Shown here in pieces: positions 2,283-8,957 of a DNA stretch of 64,000 bases. Source of the DNA: Bacillota bacterium (GTDB taxonomy: Bacteria; Bacillota; Dethiobacteria; DTU022; UBA8154). The stretch lies in contig JAAYFF010000025.1 of assembly GCA_012728375.1 (NCBI GenBank), positions 13,741-77,740 of the forward strand. Reading direction: 5' to 3'. The translations under genes and the position numbers were made by a program. Positions within the stretch are counted from its first letter, which is position 1. Each line of letters starts with the position of its first letter. Under the pieces are notes generated by a model. That model was not told where the DNA came from, searched no databases, and worked only from the letters and a program-made list of their open reading frames with translations.

Positions 2283-2306
2283 GTCGAATTAAAAAAGTGG
2301 ACATGA
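2283..2306. promoter_or_regulatory. Conserved element copy 1 (GTCGAATTAAAAAAGTGGACATGA), upstream of the sigma-54 activator gene and overlapping a sigma-70-like TGGACA-N15-TATAAT (2298-2324)
   Basis: It matches 4499-4523 at 18 of 19 positions and lies 55 bp upstream of ATG 2360. Confidence 0.35.
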
Positions 2307-2359
2307 AAAAGAAATATTTATAATATGTGTTAAATATTTTAACGAGGTTTAATTGCGCA

Positions 2360-4294
2360 ATGAAAAAAGCCCGCATAGTTATGATTTCCCCCCTTCCCGA
2401 GTTAACCAGGCTTGCCCGGCAGATTTCCAGGGAGCAAAATTTTAAACTGGAGATCGTGGAAGCTTTTCTGGATAAGGGAGTGGAAAAGGGCAAAAGGTTC
2501 GAACAGGCGGGTGCGGATGTAATTATCAGCCGCGGTCCCACGGGCGTGCTCCTCAAAAGAGAACTTTCCATTCCCGTTGTTTTAATCCAGATGACCAATT
2601 TTGATATTATTCGCGCTCTCTACCAGGCCAAGCAGTTAGGCCGGAAAATAGCTTATTTTGACCACATTAAGTGCAAGGAAATTTATGATTTTAAAATGAT
2701 CGATGAAATCCTTTCCCTGGAGGACCTGAGCTTTTTCTTTTACCGGGACGAAAGGGAGCTTGAAGCGCAGATACAGAGAGCGCAGGATGAAGGGGTAGAA
2801 GTTATTGTCGCCTCGGGTATTTGCATTCTGCGCATGGCCAAAATCCGCGGCATGAAGGGCGTGATGGCCTTTCCCTCCCGGGAAGCCGTTATTGAAGCCC
2901 TGCAGTGGGCCCAGGATGTTGTGCGCATGCGCGAAAAGGACCGGGAGAAAGCGGAATTTCTTAAAACCATTATTGATCATACATACACAGGCGTTATTGC
3001 CGTAAATAAAAAAGGTGAAGTAACACATTTCAACCGTTCTGCAGAAGAAATTTTCAAAGTTTCCCGCAATGATGCGGTTGGCAAAAAGGTGGAGAACCTG
3101 CCGATTCCCCTGCTGAAAATTTTTTACCAGGCCTCCGGGGAGGGGAAAGAGGAGGTACATAAAATCGGGGGTAAGCAAATCCTCTTTCACCGTATTCCCA
3201 TTTACATCGACAATGAGAAACACGGGACAGTCATTACCTTCCAGAGCGTTCACAAGATTCAGAACCTCGAGGCTACCATCCGCAAGAAACTCCATAGCAG
3301 CGGCCTTGTTTCACGCTACACCTTTAATCATCTCGTCGGCTCCTCACCGGAAATGGTAAAAACAATAAACCGTGCCAAAAAATTTGCAGCTTCCGGTTCA
3401 ACAGTTTTAATTATCGGGGAAAGCGGTACCGGAAAAGAGCTTTTTGCCCATAGCATTCACGCTGAGAGTCCTCGTCGCGAAGGACCGTTCGTGGCTATTA
3501 ACTGCGCCAGTATTCCCAAAGAATTGCTGGAAAGCGAGCTCTTTGGTTATGAAGAGGGCTCGTTTACAGGAGCCAAGAAAGGCGGGAAAATAGGGCTTTT
3601 TGAGCTTGCACACGGCGGAACGATTTTCCTGGACGAGATATCTGAGCTCTCTCCCCCTCTGCAGCTAAATCTGTTGCGGGTTCTCCAGGAAAAAGTGGTG
3701 CGCCGCATCGGCGGGGAACGGATTATTCCTGTAGATGTGAGGGTGCTCGCCGCCACAAACCGTTTTTTAGCCGGGGAAGTAAAAAAGGGGAATTTTCGGG
3801 AAGATCTTTTTTTCCGCCTTAATGTTTTAAACTTGCATATCCCTCCTTTGCGGCAGCGTAGAGATGATATTCCCCTTTTGATTGAACATTTTTGCAGGAA
3901 GTATAGGGGGAGCAGGAGCGGCAGCGAAGAATTCCCTCCCTCCATTATTCGCTATCTTTGTGAATATGACTGGCCGGGCAATGTCCGGGAGCTGGAAAAT
4001 TTCATTGAAAAATATGTTTTTCTTTCCGAAGAGGGTGCGGATAATTTTCGTTTAATTGAGGAACTGGTTGATGAGCTTTACCGCTACAGGGAAGACGAGC
4101 AGGGTCTCGTGCCGGCCGGAGAACAATATTTAACTATTGGTGTAGGAAAGATGGAAGATATGGAGAGGCAAATTATTGAAAAGCTTTATAAACAGAGCAA
4201 GCGGGACAAGAAGGATCTGGCCCGGCAGCTTGGAATCAGCCGCACGACTCTCTGGAAAAAATTAAAAAGCATTGAATCCGGTTCTGTGAAGTAG
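2360..4294 (+). CDS. Sigma-54-dependent transcriptional activator, PrpR-like (PrpR_N sensor, PAS, AAA+ sigma-54 interaction domain, Fis-type HTH)
   Basis: Walker A GESGTGKE, a GAFTGA-type loop (EEGSFTGA), ELENFIE, and a C-terminal HTH (DLARQLGISRTTLWKKLK). The N-terminus is PrpR_N-like. ATG 2360 (MKKARIVMIS) is preferred over the track start 2327. Confidence 0.9.
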   Translation: MKKARIVMISPLPELTRLARQISREQNFKLEIVEAFLDKGVEKGKRFEQAGADVIISRGPTGVLLKRELSIPVVLIQMTNFDIIRALYQAKQLGRKIAYFDHIKCKEIYDFKMIDEILSLEDLSFFFYRDERELEAQIQRAQDEGVEVIVASGICILRMAKIRGMKGVMAFPSREAVIEALQWAQDVVRMREKDREKAEFLKTIIDHTYTGVIAVNKKGEVTHFNRSAEEIFKVSRNDAVGKKVENLPIPLLKIFYQASGEGKEEVHKIGGKQILFHRIPIYIDNEKHGTVITFQSVHKIQNLEATIRKKLHSSGLVSRYTFNHLVGSSPEMVKTINRAKKFAASGSTVLIIGESGTGKELFAHSIHAESPRREGPFVAINCASIPKELLESELFGYEEGSFTGAKKGGKIGLFELAHGGTIFLDEISELSPPLQLNLLRVLQEKVVRRIGGERIIPVDVRVLAATNRFLAGEVKKGNFREDLFFRLNVLNLHIPPLRQRRDDIPLLIEHFCRKYRGSRSGSEEFPPSIIRYLCEYDWPGNVRELENFIEKYVFLSEEGADNFRLIEELVDELYRYREDEQGLVPAGEQYLTIGVGKMEDMERQIIEKLYKQSKRDKKDLARQLGISRTTLWKKLKSIESGSVK

Positions 4295-4330
4295 TTTCAC
4301 CATTTTGAACAAAGGGAGAACTTCTCTTGT

Positions 4331-4346
4331 TGGCATATAAATTGCA
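4331..4346 (+). promoter_or_regulatory. Sigma-54 (-24/-12) promoter: TGGCAT-N5-TTGCA
   Basis: tTGGCATataaaTTGCAtat matches the consensus TGGCAC-N5-TTGCW, with GG and GC 10 nt apart. It lies immediately downstream of the activator gene and upstream of the thiolase operon. Confidence 0.55.
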
Positions 4347-4498
4347 TATTTTCATTAATAGTAGACAAATTCCCCTTTTATAAAAATCTGGGTTTAACAT
4401 ATAAAAGCCCTGTTTAGTAGATAATTTGTAGGCTTATCAAGGAAAGGCATAAGGAATAAAAGAAAGGGGGGTTAAAAAAGTAAACATTGTTTCCGCGT

Positions 4499-4523
4499 GT
4501 CCAGTTAAAAAAATGGACATGAC
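4499..4523. promoter_or_regulatory. Conserved element copy 2: inverted repeat GTCCA-N10-TGGAC containing TTAAAAAAATGGACATGA (candidate activator-binding site / UAS)
   Basis: Near-identical to 2289-2306. It sits between the sigma-54 promoter (4331) and the thiolase start (4674). Confidence 0.4.
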
Positions 4524-4673
4524 TTCTCGCCAAAGCCGGAAATCAAGACGCTTATCAAGGCTTAAAAGGGAAGAGGAGGCATTATTTTTCAGTAAAAGAT
4601 GGGGTTAGGTTTTTGCATCTATAAAAAAATAGAAGGGAGGAAGTCCCGAAAGTGAACGCTTTCGGGGAAACAA

Positions 4674-5855
4674 ATGAAAAACCCAGTAATTGTAAGTGCC
4701 GTAAGGACTATCGCCGGCAGCTTTGGCGGCAGCTTAAAGAGCAAGACCGCTGCTGATCTGGGAGCAGCAGTTGTTGCCGAAGCTGTTAAGAGGGCGGGGA
4801 TCTCTCCTGAGGATGTGGATCAGTTAATTTTCGGTTGCGGTTGGCAGGCGGGAATTGGCCCGAATATTGCCCGTATCTGTGCTGTTCGGGGAGGGCTTCC
4901 TCACAAAGTGCCCGCCTATACAGTCAACATTCGTTGCGCTTCCAGCCTTCAGGCGATTATTGACGGATGCCGGTCCATTATGTGCGGCGATAATAATGTG
5001 TTGGTTGTGGGCGGTACCGAATCCGGTTCCAACGTTCCCTTCCTGATTCCCCAGGCCCGCTGGGGCGCCCGCATGTGGGATTTCCCCGTTTATGACGGTT
5101 TGCACTATGATGGTTTTAAGTGTATGCTGGCAGGAATGTTTATGGGCAATACCGCTGAACTCCTGGCAGAGAAATACAACATCAGCCGGCAGGAGCAGGA
5201 CGAATTTGCCCTGTGGAGCCATCAGAAAGCAGCGAAAGCTGTTGCTGAAGACAAATTCAGGGATGAAATTGTTCCCATTGAAGTTACCCAAAAGAAGAAG
5301 ACAGTGATCGTGGATCAGGAAGAAATTCCCCGGGCCGATGCTTCGTTGGAAAAAATGCTCAAGTTGCCCCCGGTATTTAAAAAAGACGGCACGGTAACGG
5401 CCGGCAATAGCTGCGCACTCTGCGACTGTGCATCCGCCCTGGTGATTATGTCTGAAGAAAGAGCTAAGTCCCTGGGAGTTACACCTATCGCCCGCATTGT
5501 GAGTTATGCTGAAGCAGGGGTAGATCCCATGTACATGGGAATTGGCCCGGTTGCCGCCATTCCTAAAGCCCTGGAAAGAGCCGGACTGAAGCTGGATGAT
5601 ATCGATCTCATTGAGTTAAACGAAGCTTTTGCCGCCCAGTATTTAGCCTGTGAAAGGGAACTGAAATTTAACCGGGAGAAAATTAATATCCACGGCGGAG
5701 CCATCGCCCTTGGTCACCCTGTGGGGGCCACCGGTACCAAACTCGTTACCACCAACCTCAATACCCTGAAACAATATGGCAAGACCCTTGGCATGACCAG
5801 CATGTGCGTGGGCGGCGGCCAGGGATTGGCTGTCATCGTAGAAAGATTAAACTAG
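4674..5855 (+). CDS. Acetyl-CoA acetyltransferase (thiolase)
   Basis: MKNPVIVSAVRTIAGSFGG... The thiolase active-site regions are present (NIRCASSLQAI, GNSCALCDCASALVIM, GHPVGATG). 393 aa. Confidence 0.9.
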   Translation: MKNPVIVSAVRTIAGSFGGSLKSKTAADLGAAVVAEAVKRAGISPEDVDQLIFGCGWQAGIGPNIARICAVRGGLPHKVPAYTVNIRCASSLQAIIDGCRSIMCGDNNVLVVGGTESGSNVPFLIPQARWGARMWDFPVYDGLHYDGFKCMLAGMFMGNTAELLAEKYNISRQEQDEFALWSHQKAAKAVAEDKFRDEIVPIEVTQKKKTVIVDQEEIPRADASLEKMLKLPPVFKKDGTVTAGNSCALCDCASALVIMSEERAKSLGVTPIARIVSYAEAGVDPMYMGIGPVAAIPKALERAGLKLDDIDLIELNEAFAAQYLACERELKFNREKINIHGGAIALGHPVGATGTKLVTTNLNTLKQYGKTLGMTSMCVGGGQGLAVIVERLN

Positions 5856-5908
5856 GCTCTTGTATATTTTAATCATATAAATAAAAGTATTTGAGAGGAG
5901 GAAATTTT

Positions 5909-6793
5909 ATGGATATTAAAAAAGTATTTGTTCTGGGTGCCGGGATCATGGGTACAGGTATTGCGCACCTTTGTGCCCAGCAGGGATTGAACGTTGTCCT
6001 TGTTGATATTAACGAGGATATCCTCAAGCGCAGCATTAGCAATATCGAGGGGATCCTGAACAAGAGAGTCGAGAAGGGTAAAATAACTGCCGATGCAGCC
6101 AAAGAACTTGTCGGACGGATTAAAACTTCCACCGATAAAAAAGAAGCTGCCGGCTGCGATTTCGTTATTGAAGCGGTTACTGAAAATGTCAAGCTCAAGC
6201 AACAATTATTCGCCGAGCTTGACGAGATCGTTCCCGCAGGGATAATTCTTGCCACCAATACGACCGCCTGTTCCATTTCTGAGGTTGCTTCCGCAACCAA
6301 GGATCCAAGCCGGGTAATCGGAATGCACTTCTTCAATCCCGCAGTGGTCATGAAACTGGTGGAAATTATGCCCGGCCTGGCGACTAAACCTGAAGTTGCT
6401 GCGACAACCAAGGAACTCGTTGAGTTTTTAGGCAAAGAACCCGTTGTAACCGCCAAGGAAGGGATTGCCGGGATCGCCAGCCGCGTCCTGGCCGGTATGT
6501 TGAATGAAGCGGTTTGGGTGTTGGAAGAAGGGATCGGTACAGCCGCGGATATCGATAAGGCTATGAAGATGGGCTCCAATCTGCCCATGGGTCCCCTGGC
6601 GCTCATCGATATGATTGGAATCGATACCCACCTGGCCAAAACCAGAACCCTTTATGAAAAGCTGGGCGATGCCCGTTACCGTCCCTGCTACCTCCTGGAG
6701 AAAATGGTTCATGCCGGTTATCTGGGACGCAAATCAGGGAAAGGTTTCTATGATTACAGCCAGGATCCGCCCGTGCCCACAGTGTTAAGATAA
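5909..6793 (+). CDS. hbd: 3-hydroxybutyryl-CoA dehydrogenase
   Basis: [20 protein letters not shown] carries a Rossmann GxGxxG. The 3HCDH N and C domains are recognisable. RBS GAGAGGAGG precedes ATG 5909 (the track start TTG 5891 is rejected). Confidence 0.9.
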
Positions 6794-6906
6794 GTGCGGG
6801 TATAACGCGATACGCGAAAAACTTAAATTTTGAAAAATGCTGTTTTTGCAGGCTTGAGCCGGCGGCCAAGCTTTCAGAAAGGGCGAAAAAAAAAGGAGGT
6901 TATTTT

Positions 6907-8061
6907 ATGGATTTTGAACTGAATTCCGAACAACTGGCAGTGCAAAAGATGGTCCGCGAATTTGTTGAAAAAGAGATTACCCCCAATGCCAAGCAATGGG
7001 ACCTTGATGAGAAGTTCCCCATGGACACATGGAAGAAGATGGGCGATCTCGGAATTATCGGTACATCCATCCCCGAAGAATACGATGGTAGCGGAATGGA
7101 TTTCATCTCCCACGCTATTGTCGCGGAAGAGCTTGGTTACGGATGCTCCTCCATGCGGGGTTCTTATTCCGTGAATATCTCTCTGGTGGCCAAGACCATT
7201 TTGAAGTGGGGAACCGAAGAACAAAAGAAAAAGTACGTCCCCCCCATTGCCCGGGGAGAAGCTTTTGGCTGCTACGGCCTTACCGAGCCGGATTCGGGAA
7301 GCGATGCCGCCAGCTTGAAAAGTGTCGCGGAAAAGGATGGGGATTATTATATCCTCAACGGCAACAAAATGTGGATTACCCATGCCAATATGGCTGATGT
7401 TTCTCTTATTTTTGCCAAAACGGATAAAGATGCCGGAGCAAAGGGTATTACCTGCTTCCTGGTGGACAAAGGTACTCCTGGTATGAACCCGCAGCCCATT
7501 CATGAAAAGATCGGTCTTCGCGCCCAGGATACCGGCGAGATTTACATGGAGAACGTGCGCGTCCACAAGGACCAAATTTTGGGACCAATCGGCAAAGGTT
7601 TTGCCGTTGCCATGTCAGCTCTCGATAATGCACGTTTCACTGTTGCTGCAGGTTGCGTAGGCACCGCGCAGGCTGCTTACGATATTGCCAAGGCCCATGC
7701 CAAGGAAAGGGTTCAGTTTGGCAAAGTGATCGCCAGCCGTCAGCTTGTCCAGTCATTGCTGGCCAACATGATTCTGAATATAGAACTGGGCCGGATGCTC
7801 GTTTGGAGGGCCGGCTGGCTGAAGAATAAAGGAGTTCCCAATACCCGTGAGACCTCCATGGCCAAGTATTTCTGCGGCGAAATGGTTAACAAGGTTTGTT
7901 ATGATGCTATGCAGATACTGGGAGGCTACAGCTTCTCGGGCGAATATGCCCTGGAAAGAATGTACCGCGATTCCCGCATCAATACCCTTTACGAAGGCAC
8001 ATCCCAGATCCAGCAACTGATTATCGGCAATGCCGAGCTGGGAATTCCTGCTTTTGCATAA
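6907..8061 (+). CDS. bcd: Acyl-CoA dehydrogenase (short-chain/butyryl-CoA dehydrogenase type)
   Basis: 384 aa. ACAD N, M and C domains, with the catalytic-Glu context near the C-terminus (YEGTSQIQQLIIG). RBS AAAGGAGG. Confidence 0.9.
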   Translation: MDFELNSEQLAVQKMVREFVEKEITPNAKQWDLDEKFPMDTWKKMGDLGIIGTSIPEEYDGSGMDFISHAIVAEELGYGCSSMRGSYSVNISLVAKTILKWGTEEQKKKYVPPIARGEAFGCYGLTEPDSGSDAASLKSVAEKDGDYYILNGNKMWITHANMADVSLIFAKTDKDAGAKGITCFLVDKGTPGMNPQPIHEKIGLRAQDTGEIYMENVRVHKDQILGPIGKGFAVAMSALDNARFTVAAGCVGTAQAAYDIAKAHAKERVQFGKVIASRQLVQSLLANMILNIELGRMLVWRAGWLKNKGVPNTRETSMAKYFCGEMVNKVCYDAMQILGGYSFSGEYALERMYRDSRINTLYEGTSQIQQLIIGNAELGIPAFA

Positions 8062-8094
8062 AAGGCGAGAATTGTTATAAACTATTTCTAAAAG

Positions 8095-8153
8095 TATGGG
8101 GAAGGGGGAAAGGGAATTATCCCTTCCTCCATCCCCATTTTTTGTTACTTAGA
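8095..8153 (+). terminator. Long imperfect GC-rich hairpin followed by TTTTTTG (possible attenuator/terminator between bcd and crt)
   Basis: ATGGGGAAGGGGGAAAGGGAAttaTCCCTTCCTCCATCCCCAT, then tttttg. Confidence 0.35.
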
Positions 8154-8177
8154 CTTTAAAAAAGAGGAGGTATGGAG

Positions 8178-8957
8178 ATGTACCAGTTTATTAAATATGA
8201 AAAAGAAGCGCCTCTGGCGATTATTACCGTTAATCGCCCGGAAGTCATGAATGCTATGAATAATGCCCTTGTGGAAGAGTTTGCCCAGGCCTTTAAAGAA
8301 GCGGAAAATGACGATGAAGTAAGAGCGCTGATTATAACCGGGGAAGGCAACAAGGCTTTCATGGCCGGTGCGGATATCAAGGAAGTACAGGCTAGAGACT
8401 TTGTTCTGGGGCGCAAACAGACCCGCAGGCGCCAGGAAGTATTAAACATGCTGTATGAAATGCCCAAGCCCGTAATCGCCGCTATTAACGGATTTGCCCT
8501 CGGGGCCGGCTTGGAGACGGCACTGGCCTGCACACTGCGCATTGCCTCTACCAACGCCAAACTGGGCGCTCCGGAAGTAAACCTGGGGATTATTCCCGGC
8601 GACGGTGCCACCCAGCGTCTTCCGAGAATGATTGGCTTTGGCCGTGCAATGGAGATGGTTTTAACGGCGCGTATGGTGGATGCCGAAGAGGCCTACCGCA
8701 TCGGGCTGGTAAACAAGGTGGTGCCCCAGGAAGAATTAATGGAAGAAGCTAAAAAAATGGCCGGCAGCATTATCAACAAATCGCCTCTGGCCATCCAGTA
8801 CGCCAAGGAAGCAGTCAACCGCTCCATGGAAATGGGTCTTTATGAAGGAATGGCCCATGAGTCTTACCTCCACGCCCTGGCCTGTGCCACGGAGGATAAG
8901 AAAGAAGGAGTTGCCGCATTCCTGGAGAAGCGTAAAGCCCAGTATCAAGGGAAATAA
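8178..8957 (+). CDS. crt: Enoyl-CoA hydratase (crotonase family)
   Basis: The crotonase fold is recognisable (LAIITVNRPEVMNAMN, FMAGADIKE, ING-A-GAGLETALACTLRIA). RBS GAGGAGG at 8164-8170 favours ATG 8178 over 8172. Confidence 0.9.
   Translation: MYQFIKYEKEAPLAIITVNRPEVMNAMNNALVEEFAQAFKEAENDDEVRALIITGEGNKAFMAGADIKEVQARDFVLGRKQTRRRQEVLNMLYEMPKPVIAAINGFALGAGLETALACTLRIASTNAKLGAPEVNLGIIPGDGATQRLPRMIGFGRAMEMVLTARMVDAEEAYRIGLVNKVVPQEELMEEAKKMAGSIINKSPLAIQYAKEAVNRSMEMGLYEGMAHESYLHALACATEDKKEGVAAFLEKRKAQYQGK

Follow-up and report, generated by a model that had tools for sequence, protein, structure and literature searches.

Two nearly identical 18-nucleotide (nt) sequences lie on either side of the gene for a predicted sigma-54-dependent activator in the stretch of DNA considered here, a 64,000-nt piece of contig JAAYFF010000025.1 (positions 13,741 to 77,740 of the forward strand; assembly GCA_012728375.1) from a Dethiobacteria member of the Bacillota, which is referred to below as the window and whose own coordinates are used throughout. 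The repeat belongs to a conserved family of 15-bp sites that is most likely bound by the neighbouring activator, an enhancer-binding protein (EBP) that would control both its own gene and a fatty-acid operon. We put at roughly 0.65 the probability that the two 18-mers are two of the four or five binding sites of the PrpR_N-PAS-AAA+-HTH_8 protein encoded between them, serving autorepression at one end of the gene and as a downstream enhancer at the other. The basis for this reading is the conservation of the sites, their specificity, their geometry and a pattern of co-loss among relatives. The switch itself is of an ordinary bacterial kind; its unusual part is the conserved placement of enhancer sites downstream of the promoter. 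The features on which the argument turns are as follows.

2264-2289, + strand: predicted SigH-type promoter of the activator gene (-35 AGGG at 2264-2267, 18-nt spacer, -10 GAAT at 2286-2289)
2288-2302, + strand: U1, ATTAAAAAAGTGGAC, the core of copy 1, overlapping the -10 element and the predicted start
2329-2343: U2, the perfect 15-bp palindrome GTTAAATATTTTAAC, in the 5' untranslated region of the activator gene, 17 nt before its ATG
2360-4294, + strand: gene of the EBP, 644 amino acids (Pfam: PrpR_N, PAS, sigma-54 AAA+ and HTH_8), with Walker A at 3416-3439, the GSFTGA loop at 3557-3574 and the arginine finger R486 at 3815-3817
4296-4312: S0', the degenerate site GTTTCACCATTTTGAAC (spacer 11, not 9), just past the stop codon at about -53
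4331-4346, + strand: sigma-54 promoter TGGCATATAAATTGCA (-24 GG, -12 GC), 37 nt past the activator stop codon
4471-4485: S1, GTTAAAAAAGTAAAC, candidate enhancer site centred at about +121
4504-4518: S2, GTTAAAAAAATGGAC, the core of copy 2, centred at about +154 within the palindrome TGTCCA-N10-TGGACA of 4498-4519
4674-8957, + strand: target operon (Pfam, NCBIfam), consisting of thiolase (4674-5855), 3-hydroxyacyl-CoA dehydrogenase (5891-6793), acyl-CoA dehydrogenase (6907-8061) and enoyl-CoA hydratase (8172-8957), all on the + strand

The initial annotation had described the repeat as a 19-bp element identical at 18 of 19 positions. Both copies are where it had placed them (TTAAAAAAGTGGACATGA at 2289-2306 and TTAAAAAAATGGACATGA at 4505-4522) and their near-identity stands, with a corrected length of 18 nt and a corrected count of 17 matches in 18, since a one-base extension on either side adds a mismatch. 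The 18-mer has only two matches in the 64-kb window at up to three mismatches (chance mean 0.21), which rules out a dispersed repeat, and 17/18 is the best agreement of any 18-mer common to the two intergenic regions, a level reached in 3 of 1000 first-order Markov shuffles. The inverted repeat that had been noticed around copy 2 (GTCCA-N10-TGGAC) is real and slightly longer than claimed, reading TGTCCA-N10-TGGACA without mismatch; the left arm of copy 1 is imperfect (GTCGA-N10-TGGAC, 2283-2302). Conservation of the ATGA tail and of the GTCCA left arm does not extend past the closest clade. Overlooked at the time were a third related copy, S1, and the perfect palindrome U2. It is the 15-bp dyad GTTnA-N5-TnAAC, with four or five sites at the locus, that on comparative evidence is the functional unit, and the two 18-mers appear as its members U1 and S2, not as a stand-alone element. 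The idea of a regulatory site shared by the activator gene and the thiolase-hbd-acd-crt operon is thus retained, and that of a two-copy 19-mer as its unit is given up.

Four of the sites (U1, U2, S1 and S2) are clear and a fifth, S0', is degenerate; U2, copy 1, copy 2 and S1 all match the pattern [GA]TT.A.....T.[AG]AC. In the window as a whole, RTTWAANNNNTNRAC has 8 matches where 1.44 are expected, a number that none of 100 shuffles reaches, and 5 of the 8 fall within the two intergenic regulatory regions. Other window matches to the family (42795, 46087, 32379 and 56361) are put down to chance because all of them lie inside coding sequences of unrelated genes. Independently of this hand-made pattern, we enumerated 64 trinucleotide dyads at 14 spacings each, or 896 in all, in 5.5 kb of regulatory sequence taken from 12 lineages, as compared to the rest of the same loci. 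GTT-N9-AAC ranks first of the 896, with 30 occurrences observed, 1.44 expected and representation in 12 of 12 loci (p = 5e-29, a value that overstates independence, since the lineages are related), and the dyads ranked next are generic AAA/TTT combinations. When a position weight matrix was trained without the window and without any TGGAC site, and scored against a background of 126,688 window 15-mers, U2 obtained 20.6 (0 background 15-mers as good), S1 19.1 (2 as good), S2 12.4 (7 as good, a fraction of 5.5e-5) and U1 4.5 (71 as good, a fraction of 5.6e-4). These scores make copy 2 a clear member of the family and copy 1 a marginal one, and the assignment of U1 to the activator is weaker than that of copy 2 for that reason; the matrix is too severe on the outer triplets, since these were fixed in the pattern used for training.

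The orthologues of the activator form a tight group (62-95% identity, labelled Dethiobacter or Dethiobacteria), after which there is a gap to about 50%. The order activator gene, then thiolase operon, is found at 12 further loci (L006, L001, L002 and L008 to L016), making 13 with the window; it is conserved in 12 lineages, and identity is 99% for L006, 90% for L001, 87% for L002 and 63-75% for L008 to L016. An alignment of the activator upstream region from the 13 loci (alignment A1) contains three conserved blocks amid diverged DNA, namely block A (AGGAtTTT), block B (GAATTwAAAAArTGGAC, which is copy 1) and block C (the palindrome GTT.A.....T.AAC). Within block C, U2 is invariant in 13 of 13 loci, at which the activators are down to 63% identical, and within block B the U1 sequence TTwAAAAArTGGAC is invariant in 12 of 12 non-redundant lineages amid flanks that diverge, so that both sites have the character of phylogenetic footprints across the 13 loci. 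We propose U2 as a strong and U1 as a weak autoregulatory operator. At the level of sequence comparison, then, the motif is supported as a conserved cis-regulatory element tied to the EBP of 2360-4294.

The activator gene also carries a conserved predicted promoter of the SigH type, the -10 element of which overlaps the left edge of copy 1. The published SigH motif consists of AGGA and GAAT separated by 17-18 nt (PMC12456013), and each of the 13 loci has a single AGG[AG]-N17/18-GAAT in front of the activator gene, with a spacer of 18 nt in 11 loci and 17 nt in 2, as compared to a background rate of 0.019 per 200 nt; the window -35 reads AGGG. Transcription of the activator gene is predicted to start at about 2295-2297, some 7 nt past GAAT. 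The initial annotation had instead seen a sigma-70-like promoter, TGGACA-N15-TATAAT, at copy 1. The letters are present in the window (TGGACA at 2298-2303, TATAAT at 2319-2324, or, with a spacer of 17, TAATAT at 9/12), but inspection of L010, L011, L013, L015 and L016 found no -10 hexamer conserved 16-18 nt past TGGAC, so a sigma-70 promoter at copy 1 is unsupported and a sigma-70 -35 with UP element is ruled out as an account of it. A Spo0A box over GTCGAAT was likewise rejected on inspection, only GAA being kept across lineages. Upstream of the SigH-type -35, an A/T-rich block at 2243-2258 (ATATTTTTATTTT / CAAAARTTAAA, columns ~75-100 of alignment A1) is partly conserved and could be an UP-like element or a further weak site.

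On the operon side, copy 2 had been placed upstream of its target. This is correct with respect to the thiolase ATG (4674), but the site is not in the usual upstream enhancer position, a point that the initial annotation had not brought out. The sole sigma-54 promoter lies at 4331-4346 (TGGCATATAAATTGCA is the only zero-mismatch match in the 64-kb window), which puts copy 2 some 160 bp downstream of it, within a leader of ~315 nt; the operon transcript is predicted to start at about 4357. A sigma-54 promoter is present at the same position in L006, L001, L008, L010 and L013, and the five promoter-bearing lineages (window/L006, L001, L008, L010 and L013) share one layout, with S0 at or just past the activator stop codon, centred at -38 to -73, followed by two or three sites (S1, S2, S3) at +103 to +181. 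The promoter is accompanied by multiple conserved dyad sites, of which the strong ones are at +103 to +181 and the sole upstream one is the close-in S0. Canonical S0 sites (GTTCAATAATTAAAC and similar) occur at the same place in L001, L002, L008, L010 and L013, in differing reading-frame contexts; the S0' of the window, with its spacer of 11, fails the family pattern, and S1 and S2 are therefore the good sites of the window. Positional homologues of S1 are found in L001, L002, L008 and L013, the S2-homologous site reads TGAAC in other clades, and the S1-S2 spacing is 33, 33, 33, 33 and 32 bp in the window, L001, L002, L008 and L013, respectively. A second promoter past S1 and S2 would make them ordinary upstream enhancers; no second sigma-54 promoter was found downstream of the S sites in any lineage, on either strand, and the candidate GGGTTAGGTTTTTGCA at 4602 was rejected for its poor -24 element and its lack of conservation even in L001 or L002.

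The S1/S2 sites, the promoter and the ATPase and sigma-54-contact motifs of the activator have been kept or lost together. In the five promoter-bearing lineages, a sigma-54 promoter and S1/S2 coexist with an activator in which G[AS]FTGA, Walker A and the arginine finger are all undamaged. Six lineages (L009, L011, L012, L014, L015 and L016) are without the sigma-54 promoter and essentially without S1/S2, and in the same six the GAFTGA loop is altered (GAFSGA, GTFTGV twice, GVFSGT, GAFSGT and GDDLAD), the arginine finger has become H, Q or C in every case and Walker A is often damaged; these decayed activators are still full-length and retain a conserved helix-turn-helix (HTH). Since the intact L008 is sister to the decayed L009 (87% identity) and nested among decayed lineages, the co-loss happened at least twice, and L009 retains a remnant of the sigma-54 promoter with a one-base deletion. 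U1, U2 and the HTH helix are kept in every lineage, a persistence in keeping with DNA binding in a role independent of sigma-54, for example autoregulation. EBP-derived regulators of the TyrR type no longer use sigma-54, and the six decayed orthologues resemble them in keeping the domain layout and HTH with an altered GAFTGA, no arginine finger and no adjoining sigma-54 promoter; they differ in that the decays here are recent, repeated and within one orthologous group, not an old established family. As a separate observation, the activator gene of L002 (2006-3203) is interrupted, with only an open reading frame (ORF) of 275 amino acids at its start, and may be either a pseudogene or an assembly error in a metagenome-assembled genome; the spacing of the L002 sigma-54 promoter is one base out (AAGGGGATAGTTTGCA).

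Beyond the orthologous group, homologues at 46-48% identity that stand beside different operons carry the same dyad by sigma-54 promoters, in the classical enhancer position. For the Carboxydocella homologue (48%), a pair of sites with a spacing of 31 bp, at about -104 and -73, lies between the activator stop codon and TGGCATGGTTTTTGCT, and the Natranaerofaba homologue (46%) has one site at about -131 and another beside a second sigma-54 promoter. Three distant homologues also keep the GAFTGA, Walker A and arginine finger motifs. Natranaerofaba carboxydovora (L018, 2453-2520) also has a perfect sigma-54 promoter, TGGCACAAAAATTGCA, before an acetyl-CoA-synthetase-like (ADP-forming) gene, with a family site, GTTAACAAATTAAAC, ~35 nt downstream of the predicted start, which is another promoter-downstream site in the activator family.

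The activator of the window has the expected equipment of an EBP, with a Pfam Sigma54_activat match of 1.2e-67, the motifs GESGTGKE, GSFTGA and FREDLFFRL in the motif alignment, and a Fis-type HTH_8 at residues 598-636, the helix of which, ISRTTLWKKLK, is invariant across orthologues. It scores below the cut-offs of the PrpR equivalog TIGR02329 (397.5 bits vs 499.2) and the PrdR equivalog NF041552 (403 bits vs 795), and by the tests applied it is not a PrpR, PrdR or CrbR-type member. It nevertheless resembles PrpR, the activator of propionate catabolism in Salmonella and E. coli, in that both have PrpR_N, a sigma-54 AAA+ domain and a Fis-type HTH, both adjoin an acyl-CoA-type catabolic operon, and the outer triplets GTT...AAC are found in both enhancers, that of Salmonella PrpR having been defined experimentally as CGTTTCATGAAACG (PMC4987338). 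The differences are a spacer of 9 between the triplets here and 6 in the Salmonella enhancer, the sub-cut-off score and extra PAS domain of the window protein, a target that is thiolase-hbd-acd-crt, not prpBCDE, and is co-directional with the activator gene, and main sites that are downstream of the promoter. CrbR and related clostridial EBPs are predicted regulators, CrbR itself being a prediction (Nie et al. 2019, PMC6615313), and share with the present system, whose operon is of the butyryl-CoA or beta-oxidation type, a sigma-54 activator beside a crt-hbd-thl-bcd-type operon, multiple A-rich dyad sites and a long leader. The two are set apart by their sites and not by protein comparison, those of CrbR being TGT-N10-12-ACA and upstream, those described here GTT-N9-AAC and downstream. 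Enhancers downstream of a promoter are known already from Bacillus subtilis, where RocR acts at rocG (Belitsky & Sonenshein 1999, cited in PMC4941409) and where, as proposed here, a Bacillota sigma-54 promoter is served by downstream EBP sites. The rocG sites are 1.5 kb downstream, beyond the gene, and serve also as the upstream enhancer of the next operon, whereas the candidate sites here are ~120-155 bp downstream, in the 5' leader of the same operon.

From these comparisons we infer the following scheme, including which protein binds, whether it represses or activates, where transcription starts and what the effector is. The dyad GTTnA-N5-TnAAC would be recognised by the activator, probably in dimeric form and by way of its Fis-type HTH, and its binding at U1 (over the -10 and start) and U2 (at about +40) would repress its own SigH-type transcription. 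An acyl-CoA or organic-acid signal would be sensed by the PrpR_N/PAS module, upon which the activator would oligomerise on S1 and S2, 33 bp or three helical turns apart, loop back over ~130-180 bp and remodel the sigma-54 closed complex, in a mirror image of the usual upstream enhancer geometry.

Several points weigh against this scheme. Both start sites, that of the activator gene and that of the operon, are predicted from consensus alone; U1 is a poor match to the family matrix, and its invariant TGGAC, which is never TGAAC, may reflect another purpose or another protein. The S0 of the window is itself degenerate, enhancer sites are normally located 100-250 bp upstream of the promoter (PMC6615313), and sites in a transcribed leader could act instead as a roadblock or at the RNA level. 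To these is added the relatedness of the lineages in the dyad statistics. Finally, a 49% paralogue without such sites at its locus has the very same HTH recognition helix, so the helix does not discriminate; its covariation with the sites, considered as a test of the binder, was set aside as uninformative, the helix being invariant and present also in that paralogue. Of the rival explanations, one holds that U1 is a promoter element and not an operator (the -10, start and initial sequence of the SigH-type promoter, or an A-tract UP element with a sigma-70 -35), with a likeness to copy 2 that is partly coincidental, leaving only U2 and S0 to S2 as activator sites. The GAAT of the conserved AGGA-N17/18-GAAT does overlap U1 in 13 of 13 loci, the marginal matrix match and the invariant TGGAC are in keeping with such a role, and the 17/18 match is significant at ~0.003 only, with a shared ATGA tail that is clade-specific. 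We think it unlikely all the same, given that the ten invariant bases past the -10 (AAAAArTGGAC) exceed usual promoter needs and that the sigma-70 version finds no conserved -10 at 16-18 nt past TGGAC. Moreover, the departures of U1 from the family, an A at position 1 (which GAAT forces) and a G at position 13, are each seen singly in homologous S sites, as illustrated by the L015 S site ATTAATTTTGTGAAC and the window-clade S2, which ends in TGGAC.

A more improbable alternative is that the sites are operators of some other factor encoded elsewhere, for example a redox or fatty-acid repressor such as Rex, which would repress the activator gene and the operon by a loop (S0 and S1/S2 bracket the promoter) or by a roadblock. 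Rex controls thl/crt/bcd/hbd in clostridia and its box, TTGTTAANNNNTTAACAA, shares GTTAA/TTAAC half-sites with the dyad (PMC5367854), and sites that overlap or follow both promoters are in typical repressor positions. The spacer here is 5, however, not 4, the TT/AA flanks are missing and neither regulatory region contains a match to the 18-bp Rex box (TTGTTAA-N4-TTAACAA) at up to three mismatches, so that spacing and direct search rule out a Rex operator. The sites also follow the activator family to loci with other operons, where they occupy canonical upstream positions, and S1/S2 vanish as the ATPase and sigma-54-contact motifs of the activator decay, which an independent repressor does not predict. 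Highly improbable, in our estimation, is a role of copy 2 as RNA, although such a role may exist in the closest clade; here a hairpin made in the ~315-nt leader by the palindrome GUGUCCAG...AUGGACAU would affect stability, attenuation or translation, and the likeness to copy 1 would be incidental. Copy 2 is indeed in the transcribed leader, the hairpin is present in the minimum-free-energy (MFE) fold, the leader is stabler than shuffles (z = -3.3), and beyond the 15-mer the left arm is conserved among the window, L001 and L002, where a single C-to-U substitution preserves the pairing as G-U. The palindrome is nevertheless absent from L008, L010 and L013, which have a 15-mer in the corresponding place, no double compensatory change and no Rfam match was found, and the 15-mer family occurs also in non-transcribed DNA upstream of sigma-54 promoters (S0; L018, L019). 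Binding of the dyad family by the activator itself is the reading that we retain.

The leader, for which no Rfam family was found at gathering thresholds, and the DNA upstream of the regulatory region have other features of interest. One of these stands just before the thiolase ATG:

4632-4666, + strand: Shine-Dalgarno (SD)-like GAAGGGAGGAAG at 4632-4643, then a hairpin with arms CCCGAAAG (4645-4652) and CTTTCGGG (4659-4666)

In the 12 loci of alignment A2 the AGGAGG is invariant and is accompanied by a CCGG-core hairpin, which is present in the MFE fold. The order is everywhere the invariant SD-like AAGGAGGAA, then the hairpin, with a loop of 4-30 nt among lineages, then the thiolase ATG; with the hairpin lying between, the strong SD is 30-45 nt from the start codon. 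The 3' arm of the hairpin (GGGGA/GGAGG) may be the real SD, held in a stem, and the whole may serve to control translation. Inspection ruled out a small ORF within the hairpin, or another start codon for thiolase there, the GTG at 4652 being out of frame. The leader blocks GGGGTTAGGTTT / GGAGGTTGGGG are conserved ~60 nt before the ATG (4601-4612 in the window, and homologous positions), and in clades other than the D. alkaliphilus group (leaders of L008, L009, L012 and L015) the final S site is immediately followed by GTGAGGTGATGC; all of these resemble SD sequences and none is followed by an ORF. At the other end of the region, a gene for a YqeC + MobA-like NTP-transferase fusion (816-2195) separates hisG (175-792) from the activator gene, with the conserved regulatory blocks starting immediately after the fusion gene. 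In most other lineages hisG is directly upstream of the activator gene, and the fusion gene was therefore apparently inserted in the D. alkaliphilus clade.

Current understanding is not overturned by these observations, the value of which is as annotation and as a comparative model. From them come a testable motif, GTTnA-N5-TnAAC, and a starting point for defining the regulon of a PrpR_N-type sigma-54 activator subfamily, as yet uncharacterised, of Dethiobacteria and related Bacillota that would control short-chain acyl-CoA metabolism. Together with rocG, the locus would make two natural cases in which a sigma-54 promoter has enhancer sites placed downstream, in this instance at short range within the leader, and sister lineages such as L008 and L009 allow the loss of activator function to be compared directly with the loss of promoter and enhancer. 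More tentatively, and with somewhat less than even confidence, we suggest that in the Dethiobacteria a sigma-54 promoter is served by a conserved in-leader enhancer (+100 to +180), that the amount of activator is set by a SigH-type promoter overlapped by operators, and that this module has collapsed repeatedly, promoter and leader enhancer disappearing along with the sigma-54-contact loop and arginine finger of the activator and leaving behind an autoregulating DNA-binding "ex-EBP". If true, these decays would amount to a natural, replicated record of the dismantling and rewiring of enhancer-dependent transcription.

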